A stretch of DNA of 64,000 bases, from positions 1 to 64,000 of IMG/VR virus record IMGVR_UViG_3300031994_000057, one strand, 5' to 3'. A program made the position numbers and the translations under genes. The notes beneath the pieces were generated by a model that ran no database searches, was not told the DNA's origin, and worked only from the letters and a program-made list of their open reading frames with translations. Shown in pieces: positions 24,726 through 50,665 of the stretch. Positions within the stretch are counted from its first letter, which is position 1. The number at the start of each line of letters is the position of its first letter. Source of the stretch: a virus (lineage: Duplodnaviria; Caudoviricetes).

Positions 24726-25784
24726 ATGGATATCAATTTCCAGTCAATTTTTGACACAGCAGTTGAAGAAGAAAAGGCTTTTGATACTATCTTCGGTGGA
24801 GAAGAAGACGATGAAATAATGTCTGTTGTTCTTGGCGAAGATGTTGAAGATATTGTTTTCGGTGAAGAAGCTGAAGATATGAATACTATAGATGATAAGG
24901 AATCTGTAAAAGATTTAGAGAAAGATGTAGTTGGTAAAGAAATCGAAGCTCCTAAGTGTGAGCCTAGCGAGAATGTTACACAGCCTGAAGATATTGACAG
25001 TGAGAAGGATACTCCTGGTGAGCAGATTGCTTGTCCTGTAGCAGGTGTAGCTGATGCGGTTGAGAAGAAAGAGCCTGATGAGGAGAATCTTGAAGAAGAA
25101 ATCGATAAGGCTGAGAATAAAGTAGACATTGAGGAAGCTTTCCTTGCATCTATCCTTGGTGAAGACACAGAAGTTGAAATCGATTATGATACAGCTCCTG
25201 CAACTGATAATGGCGAAGCATCTGATGAAGGTGAACCTGCACCTGAGGATGAAGGATGTCATAAAGAAGGTGAAGGCTGCGAAGATGGTGAGTGTGAGAA
25301 GAAGGAAGAACCTGAAGATATCGCTCCCGATGCATCTGCAGAAGAGCCTGAAGCTCCTGTTGTTTATGATGGCGAGACAACGCCTGATGAGAATCTCGAT
25401 GACACTTTCTCTGATGAAGATGATGACGACGATGATGAAGATGTCGTAGATGATAGCTGTAAGAAAGAAGGAGTTGAAGAAATCGAAGATAATCAGACTC
25501 CTGAACTCGATGACAATGCTAACGTTAATACAGATAGTAGCTTAGATGGTGAGCCTGGTCTTGAAGGTGAATCAGAGTTACCTGGTGATGTTGGTCTTGA
25601 ATCAGCTAATCTTGATGATGTATTTGCTGAAGAGGCTGTTGATGGTGAAGAGAAATCTGAAAAGGTTGAAGATGAACTCATCAAAGCTGCTGAAGATGAA
25701 TCTGAACTTACTGATGCTGAAGTAGAGTCATTAGTTGGTGAAGAAGAAGATGATGAATTACTTGATGCTGTTCTTGGTCAGTAA
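24726..25784 (+). CDS. extremely acidic protein (scaffold or internal head candidate)
   Basis: 352 aa dominated by Asp/Glu; AACA-N6-TA at 24639-24650. Confidence 0.75.
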   Translation: MDINFQSIFDTAVEEEKAFDTIFGGEEDDEIMSVVLGEDVEDIVFGEEAEDMNTIDDKESVKDLEKDVVGKEIEAPKCEPSENVTQPEDIDSEKDTPGEQIACPVAGVADAVEKKEPDEENLEEEIDKAENKVDIEEAFLASILGEDTEVEIDYDTAPATDNGEASDEGEPAPEDEGCHKEGEGCEDGECEKKEEPEDIAPDASAEEPEAPVVYDGETTPDENLDDTFSDEDDDDDDEDVVDDSCKKEGVEEIEDNQTPELDDNANVNTDSSLDGEPGLEGESELPGDVGLESANLDDVFAEEAVDGEEKSEKVEDELIKAAEDESELTDAEVESLVGEEEDDELLDAVLGQ

Positions 25785-25820
25785 TATTCATATAAAAAAT
25801 ATAGAAAGGTGATAAATATC

Positions 25821-26552
25821 ATGGATGAAAGATTTCTTTATGAAGTTAGACCTCTTAGGATAATCTGTATCCCTGGACAAGAGAGATCAAAGAAACCATT
25901 CGTTGCTTTACTTACAAAACAAGAAGTAAAGACATATATGACTTATGGTCCTGTATATCGTAAGTATGCAGATCCTAATAAAGAAATGGTTAGAGTTACA
26001 GGTGAGAATCTTGATAGATTACATCATACTATGCCTGAGAATGGCAAGCCTAACAAGCCTGTATCTGATATTATTCCTATTAAAGCCGTAGAGAAGAACG
26101 AACCTGTTGTAGAAACTCCTGCTCCCGTAGTAGAAGAGAAGAAGGTTGAAGAGCCTAAGGTTATAGAGGAAGAAGAATTAAAAAAATCGAACGTGGAAGA
26201 GTCTACGACACCCCAGAATGAAGTAGAAGCTTCCACTGAAGATATAGTTACTGAAGAAGAAGTTGTTGAAGTTGTTGAAGAACCCGTTGCTCAGGAAGAG
26301 ACAAATGATGGTGCTGACGACGAGGTTATTGTAGAAGACGAAGCAGTTGCTGATGAAAACATCGATGTCGATGAGACCGACGACGAACAAGTCAATACAG
26401 AAGAGACAACTGAAGAAGTTGAATCTGAAGAAGAAACAGTAGAAGATACTGTAGAAGAAGCTGAAGAAGCTACAACTGAAGAGTCCACACAGAAGAATAC
26501 TCACAACAACAATAACGTACAATTCAACAGTAACAAGAAAAAGAAACATTAA
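25821..26552 (+). CDS. protein with small N-terminal domain, Glu-rich linker and basic tail
   Basis: AAAGGTG RBS before ATG 25821; terminator at ~26603-26630. Confidence 0.75.
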   Translation: MDERFLYEVRPLRIICIPGQERSKKPFVALLTKQEVKTYMTYGPVYRKYADPNKEMVRVTGENLDRLHHTMPENGKPNKPVSDIIPIKAVEKNEPVVETPAPVVEEKKVEEPKVIEEEELKKSNVEESTTPQNEVEASTEDIVTEEEVVEVVEEPVAQEETNDGADDEVIVEDEAVADENIDVDETDDEQVNTEETTEEVESEEETVEDTVEEAEEATTEESTQKNTHNNNNVQFNSNKKKKH

Positions 26553-26845: not shown

Positions 26846-26934
26846 GCCTTTTTCTTTTTAGTTCTGCCATACTATTAGAAAAAATAAAAGAGGTAGGGAA
26901 CTAATCCCTACCTCTTTTGCTCTGTTATTCAATT

Positions 26935-26977: not shown

Positions 26978-27136
26978 TTAAACCTCCTGAGGTTCTTTCT
27001 TCTTTATTTGGTAAATATTCTTATTCACCTTGAGAGCAACCTCATCAATGTTCTTATCAAATACATCCTTTGCTATATCTAATACTACAAACGATGCTGT
27101 AGTTATAGCAAACTGGATTAAGTATTTCTTCCACAT
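26978..27136 (-). CDS. 52-aa protein with N-terminal hydrophobic helix
   Basis: Hand-translated MWKKYLIQFAITTASFVVLDIAK...; CAGGAGGT RBS. Confidence 0.7.
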   Translation of the reverse strand: MWKKYLIQFAITTASFVVLDIAKDVFDKNIDEVALKVNKNIYQIKKKEPQEV

Positions 27137-27139
27137 AGA

Positions 27140-27319
27140 TTATACCTCCTGGAAACTATCGGGGGCAATCTCCTCTACATTAGCCTGGTCACGCTTTGAT
27201 TTTACTTTAACTTTGATAGCTCTGGCACCTTTCTCAATGCCCTTGGAAATATACTGCGCAGATATATCTGCTGCGATTACCACTGCAACTCCGATTAAAA
27301 CCTTAACTACTTTGTTCAT
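27140..27319 (-). CDS. 59-aa protein with N-terminal hydrophobic helix
   Basis: Hand-translated MNKVVKVLIGVAVVIAADISAQY...; AGGAGG RBS. Confidence 0.7.
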   Translation of the reverse strand: MNKVVKVLIGVAVVIAADISAQYISKGIEKGARAIKVKVKSKRDQANVEEIAPDSFQEV

Positions 27320-27322
27320 AAA

Positions 27323-27571
27323 TTAATCCTCCTTTGATTTAATAACTTCACATTCTTCAATATACTTTACATTAGTTAAAGGTACAATAATTCTCTTATG
27401 TATATCACCTTTATTTTGGTGATATAATATGAAATTATCATTTAATTCTACTCCATCAGAATCATGAATATGTAAAGCTTCTTGGATGCGTAATGATGTA
27501 CCATCAATAAACTTGATATCTACATTATTGGTATTATAAGTAAATGTCTTAAATGACTCTGCCATTATCAA
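27323..27571 (-). CDS. hypothetical protein
   Basis: 82 aa with GAGGAGG RBS. Confidence 0.7.
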   Translation of the reverse strand: MIMAESFKTFTYNTNNVDIKFIDGTSLRIQEALHIHDSDGVELNDNFILYHQNKGDIHKRIIVPLTNVKYIEECEVIKSKED

Positions 27572-27699
27572 TCCTCCTCACATTCATCTTCATCCTCAGG
27601 ACTTCCTGAGCATTCATACTTATTGGGACAAATGCTACAATCACATTCATCTGTGTATCTGCCTGTAGCATAGCAGATATCCATAGCTGTCATATCCAT
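27568..27699 (-). CDS. 43-aa Cys-rich acidic protein
   Basis: MDMTAMDICYATGRYTDECDCSICPNKYECSGSPEDEDECEED; AAGGAGGT RBS. Confidence 0.7.
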   Translation of the reverse strand: MDMTAMDICYATGRYTDECDCSICPNKYECSGSPEDEDECEED

Positions 27700-27713
27700 A
27701 TTAAATAACCTCC

Positions 27714-27998
27714 TTAATGTAACATAAACATAGCGGTTTGTAATTCCTCAATAAACTCTACAGCTTCAGAATCATTAGATACTTTCTTCTTTAAGTTCTT
27801 AAGCATCTTTTCATCTTTTTTCATTTCGACGACTTCATTAAACGCGAATCTTAGATTAGATAAATAAATTCTTTGAGTGTTTGTTGTCTCAAAATCATCT
27901 TCTAAGAATCTTTCTAAGTCAATATGAGCATCTTTACAAACCAGTGTAAGAAACATCTTTAAGTCTTTACTCATTGGTGGCGTTTTTGATTTTCCCAT
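27714..27998 (-). CDS. hypothetical protein, first gene of an early operon
   Basis: AAAGGAG RBS after the early-type promoter. Confidence 0.75.
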   Translation of the reverse strand: MGKSKTPPMSKDLKMFLTLVCKDAHIDLERFLEDDFETTNTQRIYLSNLRFAFNEVVEMKKDEKMLKNLKKKVSNDSEAVEFIEELQTAMFMLH

Positions 27999-28042
27999 AT
28001 TATTAATCTCCTTTCATAATGGAATATTGTTTGTTTATACAC

Positions 28043-28075
28043 CTATATTATATATAATTGAAATTTTGAACTTTT
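28043..28075 (-). promoter_or_regulatory. early-type promoter
   Basis: AAAAGTTCAAAATTTCAATTATATATAATATAG. Confidence 0.7.
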
Positions 28076-28086
28076 ATTAATATTAC

Positions 28087-28098
28087 AACTATATAATA
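28087..28098 (+). promoter_or_regulatory. antisense late-type promoter of cassette C
   Basis: AACT ATATAA TA overlapping the start of the inverted leader copy 28098-28111. Confidence 0.6.
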
Positions 28099-28163
28099 GA
28101 AGCATAGAAGATAGAAATTAGATTAATACCTTCAAAACTTATTATTCAATAGAATAAAAGTCA

Positions 28164-28337
28164 TTAAAAGATATTACTATCAGGCACGATAGTCTCGTTA
28201 ATCTTTTCTTTAAGATATAACGATAAATAAGATGTGATGATATAAATGGTTTGGCATTTAATATCATTGTCTTTCATATATCTATGGTAATATATCACTG
28301 ATATATTATGAAGAATATAATATAGACAATCTATCAT
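28164..28337 (-). CDS. cassette C small protein, 57 aa (MIDCLYYILHNISVIYYHRYMKDNDIKCQTIYIITSYLSLYLKEKINETIVPDSNIF)
   Basis: Hand-translated; AAAGGAG RBS; paralog of D. Confidence 0.75.
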   Translation of the reverse strand: MIDCLYYILHNISVIYYHRYMKDNDIKCQTIYIITSYLSLYLKEKINETIVPDSNIF

Positions 28338-28376
28338 TATTTAATCTCCTTTCTTAATATTTCTTCTATGCTTCTT

Positions 28377-28411
28377 ATCTATATTATATATTATTGAAAT
28401 TATATACTTTT
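28377..28411 (-). promoter_or_regulatory. early-type promoter of cassette C
   Basis: AAAAGT-N7-TTCAATAATATATAATATAG. Confidence 0.65.
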
Positions 28412-28426
28412 ACCATTATACAATAC

Positions 28427-28438
28427 AACTATATAATA
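28427..28438 (+). promoter_or_regulatory. antisense late-type promoter of cassette D
   Basis: AACT ATATAA TA before the inverted leader copy 28438-28451. Confidence 0.6.
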
Positions 28439-28516
28439 GAAGCATAAGAGATTAAAGAGTAGAGAATAACCAATAAACTTCGCTTGCTAATTATATATCT
28501 ACACTGTAACCATTAA

Positions 28517-28666
28517 TTACAGTCCATTAATCTTTTCTTTAAGATATAATGACAGATAATATAATACAATATAAATTACATAGAATTTAATATTGTTTTT
28601 CTTCTTATATTCATTTAAATATATCAGAGATATATTATTGCTGAGAATATAAAGATAATCAGTCAT
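28517..28666 (-). CDS. cassette D small protein, 49 aa (MTDYLYILSNNISLIYLNEYKKKNNIKFYVIYIVLYYLSLYLKEKINGL)
   Basis: Hand-translated; AAAGGAG RBS; shares YLSLYLKEKIN with C. Confidence 0.75.
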   Translation of the reverse strand: MTDYLYILSNNISLIYLNEYKKKNNIKFYVIYIVLYYLSLYLKEKINGL

Positions 28667-28705
28667 TGAAATAACTCCTTTCATTTTATTTCTCTTATGC
28701 TTCTT

Positions 28706-28740
28706 ATCTATATTATATATTATTGAAATTCCTTACTTTT
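28706..28740 (-). promoter_or_regulatory. early-type promoter of cassette D
   Basis: Same motif as cassette C. Confidence 0.65.
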
Positions 28741-28781
28741 ATATTTTGACATATTAATAAAAATATATAGAAAGTGAGGGA

Positions 28782-29045
28782 ATGATTATGAAAGATGCTT
28801 TTCTATTTTTATTCAAATATTTTTGGTTATTCTCCTCATGTGTTCTAATACTCATAGGAGATATATTATTTATTTTAAGAAGTCTTCAAGATTTCCATGA
28901 TACCATGAAGATATATAAACAGAATAAGGATAAGGAATACTTAAAACAACATCTAGTTGCACCAAAGATTTGTATTGGATGTAATATATTTTTGGCATTA
29001 GGTATAAGTAGTTTCTTATACTATGCTAGCATACATATGATCTGA
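28782..29045 (+). CDS. small membrane protein (2 TM)
   Basis: Two hydrophobic segments; GAGGG RBS; ends at the hairpin 29055-29081. Confidence 0.7.
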   Translation: MIMKDAFLFLFKYFWLFSSCVLILIGDILFILRSLQDFHDTMKIYKQNKDKEYLKQHLVAPKICIGCNIFLALGISSFLYYASIHMI

Positions 29046-29088
29046 TAAAATAATGGACTAGGGATATTATATCCCTAGTCCTTATCTT

Positions 29089-29877
29089 TTATAAATCCAT
29101 AAAGTCATTAAATAGATTACCATGTAATTCTTGCATTCTCTGCATCTCTATATCATCTTCATCTCCAAATATTTCATTAGGAAGTAATATCATAGTCCTC
29201 ATACCATTCTCATTATCTGGTTCATGATATGCATTATGAATAGCTTTTCTAAATGTAGGATCAGTACCCATCATATATCTGACTTGATCGTCTTCTCTAT
29301 CTCTGATTTCTTTCTCATAATCTTGATAGAGAATACCAGTTTTATTCCTATCATTTAGATACTGCATTTGAGATTGTATATCGTCATCATCTATATATTC
29401 ATATACATCTACATTGACAGTTTCACCTTTGGAATCTCTTTCAATATCACCATCTACTATCTCTTCATCTTCATCTGTTTTGATAGTATTCTTCATGATA
29501 TTCCAGTTTTCCATGACGTTCTTACCGTCATACCAGACATACATAGCCATGAGATATGAAAATACTTGGTCATCATGAGTATTATCAGAGTGCTCTACTT
29601 TACCGTTACGCTTCACTTGCATGCCGAGCATCTCTTCATAAAGAATAGGAGCAATAAATTTATCCTTATGATAATTTACTCTATCATATAATAACTCTAT
29701 TAATCTAGCACGAACTTCTTTATTAGAATTCAATCCATATACTTTAACAAGAGCATTACGTTTACCAACCATATGACCAGTGATTACTTCTTCTATAACC
29801 TTTTCTTTAATTTCAAAGTATAGATTCTTCTTTACATTAGTCTTAACAAGTCTTTGGACAACACTTCTTCCAAAACC
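29089..29877 (-). CDS. terL: terminase large subunit, exon 2
   Basis: GFGRSVV...EHSDNTHDDQVFSYLMA (nuclease DD motif); continues the exon 1 nuclease domain. Confidence 0.8.
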   Translation of the reverse strand, partial: GFGRSVVQRLVKTNVKKNLYFEIKEKVIEEVITGHMVGKRNALVKVYGLNSNKEVRARLIELLYDRVNYHKDKFIAPILYEEMLGMQVKRNGKVEHSDNTHDDQVFSYLMAMYVWYDGKNVMENWNIMKNTIKTDEDEEIVDGDIERDSKGETVNVDVYEYIDDDDIQSQMQYLNDRNKTGILYQDYEKEIRDREDDQVRYMMGTDPTFRKAIHNAYHEPDNENGMRTMILLPNEIFGDEDDIEMQRMQELHGNLFNDFMDL

Positions 29878-30311
29878 GTATAGTTTCATTATAGTCGCAA
29901 CTCTATAATGTATGGTCAATTCCATATCACTCCCATTACAGGACGTGACCAGATCATGTGTCATTCCTATTATGCATTTAATAGGACCGGTATTTTTCTT
30001 CCTCCATAAGCTTGAGGTTCTACTCCCTCGTCAAGGGATGATCGTTGAACGTATATCTCTATGAGATATTTCGCTGCTATACCTGGGCTTGTTAATGATA
30101 ACTTAGGATTTAACCTTATTATCGTCTTAATAACTTTTTTCTACTTTCGTAACTATCACGCTTATCATTACTGATTACGTTGTAGCATATTAAGCTCTAA
30201 CCCATTATCATAGCAATTAACACCGTTGAAACTTACAGGTTACCCTATAAGCTGAGACATATAGAAATATATCAACTACCATTACACTGGTAGAAATCAT
30301 TCCTAATCTGC
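29878..30311 (-). mobile_element. ORF-less group I intron in terL (ends uncertain by a few nt)
   Basis: P3 cggtgtt/aataccg, P4 tgctat/atagca, gttcaacg motif, P7 gatcat/atgatc and P9 hairpins; interrupts IELN(G)...GFG. Confidence 0.8.
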
Positions 30312-31730
30312 TCCATTGAGCTCGATATTTACTACCGAGGTTGGCATATATTGATTCACTAGTACATATATTAAGTCTGCAAGATCATCTTGTGGTATAA
30401 AATTACAATGGAATGTGGCACAAACACGAGTTGTTCGTGAATCTACTACTGTAATTGCAGATGAATCTCGCATAGCAGCACCAGATACATCGACTCCAAT
30501 AATAGGAGGGTATGTGAGGTCAATATCTTCATATACATCAAATAAGTATTGACCAACTCTACCAAACTTAAGAGTTCTAATAGGCTCTCTACAATGTGCT
30601 TTGATAATTTCAAGGTCTTCCATATTAAATGCTGCATTTTCTGTAATGGTCTCCCACTCAAGTAATACTTCTCGTCGTATCTTAGGCCAATCGTTTGCCA
30701 TCTGTGTACATATTTCTGAGAACCACTCTTCTGATAATCCCAATTGTTTATATGAGAATTTGATATAGAAGAACATTGATTGTGTATTGGCTTTTCTTAA
30801 TTCCTCTAATTGCTCATATGAGTAGTCGAGATATGATTCATCCCATCTACTAGACTTATTAATCAACTCTTGTGCATACTGTCCTTCCTTAGTGACAGGA
30901 TCACCAGGAGTTGATGCTATGAATACTCCATAAGGAGCATTATAGCTCTTTGCTATAGAAGCAGCTTTAGAATATGCAGGAATAGCTGCAGCATATACTG
31001 TTTTATTATAAGGCATAAATGCAAACTCATCATAGAACTGTAATGGCATAGTACAACCTCTTCCCAGTTTATCTGCAGCATCTTCTGATCTAGCAGAAGG
31101 GAATGTAACTATAGTGTTATGATTTAGTGGATGCTCCATTTTCTCTACAGTATTAGGTACTTTTAATTTCTGACCATTTGCATTTGTTACAGCTTCCATT
31201 CTAAGATAATTAGGTAATGTATCTCTAATCTCTTTTAATACTTTAAGATTTTCCTTAGAACCAGAATGTGCTTTATGGATAAACATCATCTGTGAGTTGG
31301 TTGTTCCGAAGTTATATAACCATAAGTAACGAATTCTGGCTGTGGTTGTTTTACCAGACTGTCGAGGAAGTTCTACATACATACTATAATTTAGTATGAA
31401 TAAAAAGTTCATCGCTAAGCCTGCTCTATCTAACTTATATCTAGCGCCTCCTGAAGCAGAACTACCCGTTTGTGGTACTCTAACAACTTCTCTTAAGAAA
31501 TACCAATAATTAACTCGTATTTCATTTAATACCATTGCTTTTTGCATTACAGAAAGATTTGGATCTCTCGGGTCTACTCCTGCTAATGCAGGATTATATA
31601 AAGCTAAAAAGAAGTCATTATTTCTAACACCAATACGTTTTAGATAATAATGCATATCCATGAACGATTGGTTGGTAGTTTCACGCTGTATGTATATTTT
31701 AATAGGGGCTACTACTTGTTCTTGAACCAT
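30312..31730 (-). CDS. terL: terminase large subunit, exon 1
   Basis: Walker A LPRQSGKTT, Walker B QFYDEFAF, ASTPG and nuclease IGVDVSG; AACA-N6-TA at 31756-31767. Confidence 0.9.
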
Positions 31731-49021: not shown

Positions 49022-49071
49022 GAAATAGCCAGAGGAGTATAATACTCCTCTGGTGTTTTATTTTTTTTTTA

Positions 49072-49105
49072 TAAAAGTTAGATATTTCAATAATATATTA
49101 TATCT
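49072..49105 (+). promoter_or_regulatory. early-type promoter of cassette E
   Basis: AAAAGTTAGATATTTCAATAATATATTATATCT. Confidence 0.7.
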
Positions 49106-49146
49106 ATGAATAAAGTTGAGAAGAAATAATTGTGGAGGCTATATGT

Positions 49147-49284
49147 ATGAGAAAGCGACTTAGCTTCATTAAAGATTATTTCGATACTAAATATTGCGAA
49201 ATCATATATAGACATGATATCCACAATGAGAAATTTATCCATAAAATAATTTATTGGATAATCTCAAAAACCATTATTAAATAG
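49147..49284 (+). CDS. cassette E small protein, 45 aa (MRKRLSFIKDYFDTKYCEIIYRHDIHNEKFIHKIIYWIISKTIIK)
   Basis: Hand-translated; GGAGG RBS; shares YRHxIHNEKxIHKIxYW with B. Confidence 0.78.
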   Translation: MRKRLSFIKDYFDTKYCEIIYRHDIHNEKFIHKIIYWIISKTIIK

Positions 49285-49395
49285 CCACCAACTATTTATA
49301 TTGGTATATCTAGATAATTAATCATCTGATTAATGAGTATCATAATAACAATATGTGAAATGGTATAACAATCTTCTCAATAACTTTATTCATAT

Positions 49396-49407
49396 TATTT
49401 CATAGTT
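49396..49407 (-). promoter_or_regulatory. antisense late-type promoter of cassette E
   Basis: Minus strand AACT ATGAAA TA, 2 nt before the inverted leader copy 49373-49393. Confidence 0.6.
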
Positions 49408-49431
49408 ATTATGATATTAATATCTTAATAG

Positions 49432-49460
49432 AGAAAGAGGAGCATAATACTCCTCTTTCT
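49432..49460 (+). terminator. hairpin terminator of cassette E
   Basis: agaaagaggag-cataata-ctcctctttct plus T-run. Confidence 0.75.
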
Positions 49461-49473
49461 TTTTTTATAAAAA

Positions 49474-49506
49474 AAAAGTAGATTATTTCCATAATATATT
49501 ATATCT
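49474..49506 (+). promoter_or_regulatory. early-type promoter of cassette F
   Basis: AAAAGTAGATTATTTCCATAATATATTATATCT. Confidence 0.65.
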
Positions 49507-49551
49507 ATGAAAGAAACTAGAATAAATATAAAGAAAGGAAAATTAATAGAT

Positions 49552-49704
49552 ATGAGAAGAATTGTATTTAATCTTAGATCTAAACTTGATGATATTTATA
49601 TCTCCAGATATTATGAAGATATGATTTCTGATTGTGATAGGTCTTTCTATTATAATATTTTAAAATACTTATGTATCTTTCTTTATAAGATCGAGCATCT
49701 ATAA
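49552..49704 (+). CDS. cassette F small protein, 50 aa (MRRIVFNLRSKLDDIYISRYYEDMISDCDRSFYYNILKYLCIFLYKIEHL)
   Basis: AAAGGA RBS before ATG 49552; the track start 49507 lies in the leader. Confidence 0.72.
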   Translation: MRRIVFNLRSKLDDIYISRYYEDMISDCDRSFYYNILKYLCIFLYKIEHL

Positions 49705-49792
49705 TTATCGCAACTAATTATAGATGAGATATCAATCAAGTTAATATTATATCCCAATTTCTATATATTGACTATATTCTAGTTTCTTTCGT

Positions 49793-49804
49793 TATCTTAA
49801 AGTT
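49793..49804 (-). promoter_or_regulatory. antisense late-type promoter of cassette F
   Basis: Minus strand AACT TTAAGA TA before the inverted leader copy 49775-49790. Confidence 0.6.
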
Positions 49805-49823
49805 AACCTAGTTTTATTTTTTT

Positions 49824-49858
49824 GTAAAAGTTGGTTATTTCAATAATATATTATAGAT
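49824..49858 (+). promoter_or_regulatory. early-type promoter of cassette G
   Basis: AAAAGTTGGTTATTTCAATAATATATTATAGAT. Confidence 0.7.
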
Positions 49859-49903
49859 ATGAAAGAAACTAGAATAAATATGGTACAAAGGAGATGATAT
49901 AAT

Positions 49904-50056
49904 ATGAAGCCTTTGCTTAATAAAGCTAGGTCTATTATAGATACTAAATATATTTATATCTTATATGAACTCACACTTCAGAATAAGAATAATAGTATTA
50001 TCTGTAATATATTATCTATAATTAGTAATGTATTATATACATTAGAGAATTTATAA
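49904..50056 (+). CDS. cassette G small protein, 50 aa (MKPLLNKARSIIDTKYIYILYELTLQNKNNSIICNILSIISNVLYTLENL)
   Basis: Hand-translated; AAAGGAG RBS. Confidence 0.75.
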   Translation: MKPLLNKARSIIDTKYIYILYELTLQNKNNSIICNILSIISNVLYTLENL

Positions 50057-50137
50057 AATAAATTCATATCTTCATAACTCCATAAGTTAATATAATTCCC
50101 AATTTCTATATATTAACTATATTCTAGTTTCTTTCAT

Positions 50138-50149
50138 TATCTCAAAGTT
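50138..50149 (-). promoter_or_regulatory. antisense late-type promoter of cassette G
   Basis: Minus strand AACT TTGAGA TA directly before the inverted leader copy 50120-50137. Confidence 0.6.
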
Positions 50150-50167
50150 AATCATGTTTTATTTTTG

Positions 50168-50201
50168 TAAAAGTAGATTATTTCAATTATATATTATAGA
50201 T
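50168..50201 (+). promoter_or_regulatory. early-type promoter of cassette H
   Basis: AAAAGTAGATTATTTCAATTATATATTATAGAT. Confidence 0.7.
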
Positions 50202-50245
50202 ATGAATAAAGCCATGAAGAAATAAATTCATGGAGGATATTTAGA

Positions 50246-50384
50246 ATGATTGATAAGATTAAGAATTCAATTATTCAATATTTAAGAGGCAAGATATATT
50301 ATTTTGTACTATTTAAATATCATCCACGAAGAGACAAAAGCCCAGAGCATTGAGCTCTGGGTATTGTCCAAAATTCTTAAATAG
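50246..50384 (+). pseudogene. cassette H small protein, frameshifted (35 aa as read; ~45 aa if repaired)
   Basis: MIDKIKNSIIQYLRGKIYYFVLFKY runs on to TGA 50351-53; the shifted frame gives IHEETKAQSIELWVLSKILK*, matching the A/B/E C-termini. Confidence 0.6.
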
Positions 50385-50502
50385 TCTCACCACTATTAAG
50401 AATAAATCTGTAATAAGTTAAATTTCCTCACAAGAATTTAACGAGTATCACAATACAATATGTAAAGTAATAATCAAATCTTCATTACAGCTTTATTCAT
50501 AT

Positions 50503-50514
50503 TACTTTATAGTT
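50503..50514 (-). promoter_or_regulatory. antisense late-type promoter of cassette H
   Basis: Minus strand AACT ATAAAG TA before the inverted leader copy 50480-50500. Confidence 0.6.
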
Positions 50515-50538
50515 ATTGTGGTATTAATATCTTAGCAA

Positions 50539-50566
50539 AGAAAGAGGAGCACATACTTCTCTTTCT
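50539..50566 (+). terminator. hairpin terminator of cassette H
   Basis: agaaagaggag/cttctctttct plus T-run. Confidence 0.7.
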
Positions 50567-50665
50567 TTTTTTTACGTAGGGTCTATAGATTGAGTCTTAA
50601 CTTTATTATAATATGTATATTTAGTAAAAATTTATATATAATAATTCTAAAAGGAGGATTATACT

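Follow-up and report, generated by a model that had tools for sequence, protein, structure and literature searches.

Why should two neighbouring copies of a short viral gene each be bracketed by a perfect 14-bp inverted repeat, and why should the repeats of the two copies differ? Cassettes C and D raise this question. They lie on the minus strand, which is their sense strand, within a 64-kb window (the whole stretch of DNA analysed here, corresponding to the start of an 86.9-kb IMG/VR record with an estimated completeness of 35%). A preliminary description had proposed that pairing between the two ends of each unit is under selection. The most economical reading of our analysis is that of an end-paired early mRNA: C and D would be self-closing early messages, protected by their end helix and shut off late by antisense RNA. 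We put the probability of this reading at about one half.

Anatomy and setting of cassettes C and D

Both repeats are exact. The repeat of C reads AGAAGCATAGAAGA at 28098-28111 (plus strand), with its reverse complement at 28362-28375, and that of D reads AGAAGCATAAGAGA at 28438-28451 (plus strand), with its reverse complement at 28691-28704; apart from these four arm sites, the 64 kb contain no exact match to AGAAGCATARRAGA. The arms differ solely at positions 10-11 (GA vs AG), a change mirrored in both arms and hence compensatory, as had been claimed. Each helix is exactly 14 bp long with A-A mismatches on its flanks, and the two cassettes are approximately 75% identical. In order, each unit contains an early-type promoter, a leader arm, a Shine-Dalgarno sequence, an ORF, a 3′UTR of 50-65 nt and the reverse complement of the leader. 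The promoter is of an extended form (AAAGT-N9-11-TTTCAATAATATATAATAT-N6), the leader arm begins at most about 2 nt from the predicted +1, and AAAGGAG stands 8 nt 5′ of the ATG. The architecture said to be shared with other cassettes is indeed common to all eight in this genome. The individual features are located as follows.

28706-28744, minus: early-type promoter of D (AAAGT...TTTCAATAATATATAATAT-N6), predicted +1 at 28705/28703; fits the AR9 consensus and has 10 copies across the 87-kb record
28691-28704, minus: 5′ arm (leader) of D, AGAAGCAUAAGAGA; closing-helix probability 1.0
28675-28681, minus: Shine-Dalgarno sequence of D, AAAGGAG, 8 nt 5′ of the ATG at 28666
28517-28666, minus: ORF of D, 49 aa
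28438-28451, minus: 3′ arm of D, UCUCUUAUGCUUCU, exact reverse complement of the D 5′ arm
28427-28438, plus: late-type promoter of D, AACT-ATATAA-TA; predicted +1 at 28438, the outermost arm base; motif of the AR9 non-virion RNAP
28377-28415, minus: early-type promoter of C, from its motif
28362-28375, minus: 5′ arm of C, AGAAGCAUAGAAGA, identified by exact repeat and folding
28346-28352, minus: Shine-Dalgarno sequence of C, AAAGGAG, within a second long-range helix predicted to form with the 3′UTR at 28113-28130 (pairs 27-31/277-281 of the fold)
28164-28337, minus: ORF of C, 57 aa
28098-28111, minus: 3′ arm of C, UCUUCUAUGCUUCU, exact reverse complement of the C 5′ arm
28087-28098, plus: late-type promoter of C, AACT-ATATAA-TA; predicted +1 at 28098
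28288-28308, minus: first conserved hairpin inside the C ORF (in D, 28618-28636; alignment columns 75-93)
28239-28265, minus: second conserved hairpin inside the C ORF (in D, 28566-28596; two compensated C/D pairs; columns 115-145)
28195-28223, minus: third conserved hairpin of C, spanning the YLKEKIN codons (in D, 28524-28552; GC to AU compensation; columns 159-187)
28037-28080, minus: early-type promoter of the downstream operon (27998-26978), directly past the C 3′ arm, with a leader lacking any 3′ partner
28782-29045, plus: 87-aa ORF, likely with two transmembrane segments, 3′ of the C and D late promoters

In agreement with the preliminary description, no terminator is predicted between 28000 and 28740, and so none after C or D; the nearest predicted intrinsic terminators lie at 26886-26918 and 29055-29081. 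The sense RNA of D and C may accordingly read on into the downstream operon, with or without processing.

Judged from its sequence, the source of these cassettes is an uncultured AR9-like jumbo phage of the sheep rumen. Matching DNA is present in sheep-gut metagenome runs and partly in bovine and goat runs, and the nearest relatives of its TerL are found in AR9/PBS1-like Bacillus jumbo phages (39% identity), followed by Staphylococcus jumbo phages (34%). The 87-kb record, itself 35% complete, gave no match to the Pfam multisubunit RNAP families Rpb2_6 and Rpb1_2, and a blastn search of window positions 27000-30000 against cultured phages returned zero matches. When the cassette ORFs and eight neighbours were compared with Pfam and PHROGs, the terminase was the sole match. 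Scans of IMG/VR with neighbouring genes and C/D profiles gave no matches either, and four loci with a TerL at 52% identity were set aside, having early promoters and no cassettes. TerL itself lies in two parts on the minus strand (span 29089-31730), the ATPase part at 30303-31730 and the other at 29089-29964; the 338-nt interruption between them is likely an intron, and the TerL of AR9 is annotated as a join of 5 pieces. The 87-aa ORF is convergent with TerL and shares with it a bidirectional terminator at 29055-29081, and two neighbouring ORFs of 352 and 247 aa at 24726-26552 (plus strand) have an extreme Asp/Glu content.

In AR9, both the early promoter of the virion RNAP, AAATATATATTAT-N6-G(+1), and the late promoter of the non-virion RNAP, AACA-N6-T(A/G)(+1), have been mapped experimentally (Lavysh et al. 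2017, PMC5312081). The cassette motifs match these, fitting ATATATTAT-N6-G and AACA/T-N6-TA. Within our record the early promoter TTTCAATWATATATWAT-N6-(G/A) occurs in 10 copies, 8 of them at cassettes and 2 at operons. The late motif AACT-N6-TA abuts the 3′ arm on the opposite strand in 8/8 cassettes, with +1 either coinciding with the outer tip of the exact arm or lying 1 nt outside it. In C and D its last base falls exactly on the outermost arm position, so that the opening 14 nt of a late antisense RNA would be identical to those of the sense RNA. The motif is also found upstream of TerL and other structural genes; it is short, with 237 occurrences in the genome, and is thus no proof of promoter activity. 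If +1 is taken to be the G of the AR9 rule, 1-4 repeat bases fall upstream of the sense start in several cassettes, and these would matter only to an antisense RNA or to DNA.

For C and D alone, the plus-strand AACT-N6-TA motifs might instead be late promoters of the 87-aa membrane-protein gene, which would then have long 5′UTRs and acquire antisense silencing as a by-product. This gene follows both motifs on the plus strand and has a terminator at its end, and AR9 5′UTRs of up to 491 nt have been reported (PMC5312081). However, A, B and E-H share both motif and offset with no gene downstream on that strand, and the inverted repeat would be left unexplained, which makes this proposal highly improbable.

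Predicted folding and covariation across eight cassettes

Folded from the predicted sense +1 to the antisense +1, cassette C has a minimum free energy of -77.6 kcal/mol (z = -8.3) and cassette D of -64.1 kcal/mol (z = -5.3). Over 12 cassettes, z ranges from -5 to -12.6 at 20-29% GC (mononucleotide shuffles), compared with -1.74 +/- 0.97 (minimum -3.9) for 30 random windows of genome background. In 12/12 cassettes the sense strand folds more stably than its antisense, and the partition function gives a closing-helix probability of 1.0 in all of them. Three intra-ORF hairpins with compensated pairs are common to C, D and their homologue on contigs L122/L123. Sequestration of the Shine-Dalgarno sequence by the 3′UTR is strong in C and G and inconsistent in the others; given this variability, it can only tentatively be ascribed to the cassettes as a group. 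Rfam, searched at a permissive threshold, yielded chance-level matches only, all outside the cassettes. Contigs from an RNA run contain the early operon (27177-27944) at 100% identity, and the cassettes only as short, diverged pieces.

A modelled D-to-C read-through RNA of 608 nt folds with z = -10.2, each cassette closing on itself. Such separate closed domains, the lack of terminators in C and D, and the continuation of the C closing helix into a second helix over the Shine-Dalgarno sequence could all be expected if the helices were processing stems. Host RNase III would then cut the 14-bp helix and the adjacent Shine-Dalgarno/3′UTR helix (approximately 25 bp with internal loops) in a D-C-operon transcript, freeing monocistronic RNAs with protected ends. 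Precursors of rRNA and the early mRNAs of T7 are processed in this manner by RNase III. We nevertheless consider it unlikely here, since 14 bp is short for RNase III and since A, B, E and H retain the helix despite having terminators of their own.

The end-paired reading gains most from comparison within the genome. Besides C and D, cassettes A and B lie at 9.8-10.6 kb and E-H at 49.0-50.6 kb, and in all eight the leader and 3′ arm form a duplex of -21 to -27 kcal/mol. By comparison, the best duplexes of 107 related early leaders with their downstream 600 nt average -12.1 +/- 3.7 kcal/mol, and the two operon leaders of this genome, which have the same promoter and no 3′ partner, reach only -12 and -15. 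The arms fall into three mutually unrelated families (AGAAGCATAGAAGA, ATGAATAAAGYTGAGAAGA and ATGAAAGAAACTAGAATA). In this sense the leader of C and D is unrelated to the others, as had been proposed; the description does not hold for the leaders in full, all of which are purine-rich and end in a common ...GAAGAAATA.

Covariation, the signature that selected pairing should leave in homologous cassettes, was looked for and found. At least five closing-helix pairs covary, two between C and D and three among A, B, E and H (column 11/297, CG:2 UA:2, together with columns 13/292 and 14/291); in cassette H, a change of GAG to AUG is matched by CUC to CAU in the other arm. The A/B/E/H helix retains a 3-4-nt bulge of variable sequence, which favours RNA pairing over homogenisation at the DNA level. 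In cassette F, one repeat position forms a G.U pair on the sense strand, where the antisense would have a C.A mismatch. The ORF of cassette H (50246-50400, plus strand) ends after 35 aa, and the C-terminal motif of its family, ELWVLSKILK, resumes in another frame across a GC-rich hairpin; this break may be a frameshift, a pseudogene or an assembly error.

Homologues, strain variation and the encoded peptides

A metagenome scan for a cassette homologue returned at least one locus. The C/D homologue P0007 is found on two further metagenome contigs (L122 and L123) with the same plan: its helix of 13 bp has moved 3 nt outward, UGAAGAAGCAUAG pairing with CUAUGCUUCUUCA, and its late motif is retained with a different N6. 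On the same contig, a tubulin/PhuZ-like gene (L122:541-1279) has an in-frame TAA just before a GGTGSG motif resembling the tubulin signature, which may reflect a sequencing error, a split gene or recoding.

Similar arrangements recur where the sequences themselves are unrelated. Another IMG/VR phage contig (L076/L082) has two tandem cassettes (L076:6840-7530) with unrelated ORFs of 40 and 55 aa, whose unrelated leaders ATGATATAACGAGTACTGCAG and ATGATACAGTAGATAGATAGTTAGA each pair with their own 3′UTR; in L076, each 3′ arm is directly adjoined by GACA-N6-TA, located on the opposite strand, and followed by a terminator. In AR9, the early gene g237 has a 13-bp leader/3′UTR repeat that includes the Shine-Dalgarno sequence: its leader ATGGAGGTTTAAG has a perfect complement just 5′ of, and immediately adjoining, the terminator (L161:251-740, equal to positions 204050-204540 of the AR9 record; leader at 204069-204082, 3′ arm at 204508-204521). 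This makes g237 a cultivable test case for end pairing. Two other AR9 genes, g125 and g126, which have the strongest antisense RNA, were considered as cassettes and excluded, being late structural genes. In the related jumbo phages L017, L019, L027, L069, L072 and L086, the same early promoter is followed by local hairpins starting from the predicted +1 (within the promoter-proximal 60 nt; in L027, ATGAATAAAGGA with TCCTTTATTCAT), which point to the same need.

Together, the covarying pairs, the shifted but retained helix of L122/L123, the unrelated analogues and the operon leaders lacking a 3′ partner support the proposal that terminal pairing has been maintained in evolution, both in C/D and in A/B/E/H. 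Pairing preserved by matched mutations probably serves to protect or gate the message.

Strains differ in cassette number. In strain L121 (93% identity; L121:150-560 vs window 49029-50570), a single G-like cassette stands in place of the four (E-H) found here, its arms, leader and Shine-Dalgarno sequence unchanged and its ORF (4 amino-acid changes) and 3′UTR spacer altered. The rumen contig L120 (1-247 vs window 28358-28760) is identical to the window from the Shine-Dalgarno sequence of C onward; upstream, a different 63-aa ORF replaces cassette D together with the C promoter and 5′ arm. The mosaic breakpoint of L120 thus coincides with the ribosome-binding site of C. Within the 247 nt upstream of gene C on this short contig there is no promoter or 5′ arm, and gene C and its 3′ arm are present all the same, so that a 3′ arm can exist without a nearby partner.

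Such variation in copy number, the breakpoint at the Shine-Dalgarno sequence of C, the indels and replacements in rumen contigs, and the fact that the repeat already begins a few bases before the predicted sense +1 could also be accounted for at the DNA level, the repeats serving inversion, recombination, cruciform formation or gene conversion with RNA pairing as an incidental outcome. We find this very hard to sustain. Arm sequences differ between copies, so there is no single recombinase site; MITEs or invertible elements would share one terminal repeat recognised by one enzyme, and instead three unrelated arm families with copy-specific changes were found. Further, 240-277 bp separate the arms, no joint in inverted orientation is listed in the assembled contigs of four runs, and the variable A/B/E/H bulge, the shifted helix of L122 and the sense-only G.U pair of cassette F all speak against it.

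What, then, do the cassettes encode? The C and D ORFs, 57 aa (28337-28164) and 49 aa (28666-28517), had been noted to share YLSLYLKEKIN, and this is the case; their 47-codon alignment is gap-free, with 57% identity. Values of dN/dS are 0.13-0.67 for five pairs (for D, 0.29 vs C and 0.13 vs the L122 homologue), with zero indels over these 47 codons in C, D and the homologue, which indicates that the ORFs are under purifying selection. Both peptides are rich in Tyr and Ile with many charges and have no clear transmembrane span. AlphaFold (AF2) confidently models the C peptide as a two-helix hairpin (pLDDT 88.8), and the peptides are predicted to be charged amphipathic helical hairpins. A Foldseek search of the C model against the PDB gave nothing below E = 1, and the ESM Atlas contained no usable match. 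Across Pfam, PHROGs, the ESM Atlas and 1.8 billion representative proteins there was no family match outside this lineage, and word-indexed and full HMM protein searches recovered this lineage plus two variants only. One match, P0005, is a spurious repeat protein. Among rumen assemblies, a 259-kb contig encodes the same proteins.

Could the structured RNA be the main product, acting as decoy or regulator of host RNases, sensors or polymerase, and the peptide be secondary? The z values far beyond the genome background are compatible with such a role, as are the compensated hairpins inside ORFs, which come with amino-acid changes, and cassette H, whose arms and fold remain intact despite the broken ORF. 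In our view it is improbable, given the purifying selection and absence of indels just described, a strong Shine-Dalgarno sequence at the correct spacing in all cassettes, and the lack of an Rfam match.

The small size of the peptides (< 60 aa), the tandem copies, the highly folded mRNA with its long-range 5′/3′ helix and the promoter-like convergent motif also recall type I toxin-antitoxin systems, in which the mRNA of a toxic peptide would be locked by 5′/3′ pairing (similar to the hok fbi) and a cis-antisense RNA would be the antidote. Yet the peptides are predicted to be charged amphipathic hairpins lacking a clear transmembrane span, no Pfam, PHROG or Rfam family was matched, and the element resides in a lytic-type jumbo phage. 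Moreover, with an immediate-early sense promoter and a late antisense promoter, the antidote logic would be reversed. This makes a toxin-antitoxin function very unlikely.

Proposed early-to-late course and relation to known systems

We infer the transcript boundaries and the functions of the cassettes as follows. From the promoter motifs, the virion RNA polymerase would initiate sense transcription on the first base of the purine-rich leader or right beside it. Approximately 250 nt further on, behind the small ORF, it would copy the exact complement of the leader, so that a 14-bp helix at the extreme 5′ end could close the ~270-nt message. Pairing of an RNA from its first base onward hinders 5′-end-dependent decay, as is established for RNase J1 and RNase E; in the cassettes such pairing, combined with the very compact fold, would shield the message from host RNases of this kind. 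End pairing may in addition limit access of ribosomes to the Shine-Dalgarno sequence once the RNA is full-length. As C and D lack terminators, each would form a closed domain inside a read-through transcript. Late in infection, the non-virion polymerase would start at the AACT-N6-TA abutting the 3′ arm and produce an antisense RNA of full length; any early message still present would be silenced or destroyed by it, amounting to timed silencing.

A more far-reaching proposal, which we regard as rather unlikely, is that the cassettes represent a new class of phage 'closed' dual-function RNAs of approximately 280 nt, immediate-early and hyper-structured. Besides encoding a peptide, such an RNA would act on the host through its fold, for instance by decoying RNases or defences that sense RNA. 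Here, sense and antisense RNAs would start with the same sequence, so that both strands end-pair, and together they would constitute a programmed early-to-late double-stranded RNA switch.

If confirmed, the end-paired early mRNA would illustrate how giant phages equipped with polymerases of their own keep their first messages stable and later turn them off, and the cassettes would provide compact natural modules (promoter, leader, ORF and closing arm) for studies of mRNA end pairing. To our knowledge, few bacterial genes have documented long-range 5′/3′-UTR pairing. Of these, the B. subtilis hbs mRNA is closest: a 14-bp helix between its 5′ and 3′ UTRs modulates RNase Y (Braun, Durand and Condon 2017, PMC5737220). 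As in hbs and icaR, the 5′ and 3′ UTRs of C and D are predicted to pair within the same transcript, here through an exact 14-bp helix, and the small gene, the Firmicute context and the long-range helix, which in hbs modulates RNase access, are further points of likeness. In contrast, hbs is a single host gene rather than a multi-copy family, its helix lies away from the extreme 5′ end, and no convergent promoter is found at its 3′ arm. In S. aureus icaR, the 3′UTR pairs with the 5′UTR/Shine-Dalgarno region, and translation block and RNase III cleavage have been reported (PMC3868564). Involvement of the Shine-Dalgarno sequence is shared by AR9 g237 and cassette C; however, icaR uses an anti-Shine-Dalgarno motif, not the first transcribed bases, and encodes a regulator of the host, whereas the cassettes are early units of a phage.

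Fold-back of the fbi/tac type is known from hok/sok and other type I toxin mRNAs (PMC9841398, PMC6733600), which have in common with the cassettes a small ORF, a highly folded, 5′-3′-closed mRNA, a cis-antisense RNA (predicted in our case) and frequent tandem copies. The cassettes differ in having no hydrophobic toxin signature and no family match, and in combining early sense with late antisense promoters in a virulent-type jumbo phage. Late antisense transcripts also cover some genes of AR9 (PMC5312081). The text of that paper makes no mention of end-complementary messages, of antisense initiation at the complement of a leader, or of g237 or its repeat. Pairing of 5′ and 3′ UTRs and late antisense RNAs are thus each already known, and the literature searched contains no description of covarying multi-copy cassettes that combine both in jumbo-phage early genes. 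Compared with these systems, end pairing in this jumbo-phage lineage would be a repeated, covarying design rule of immediate-early genes, with late antisense transcription predicted to begin at the foot of the helix.
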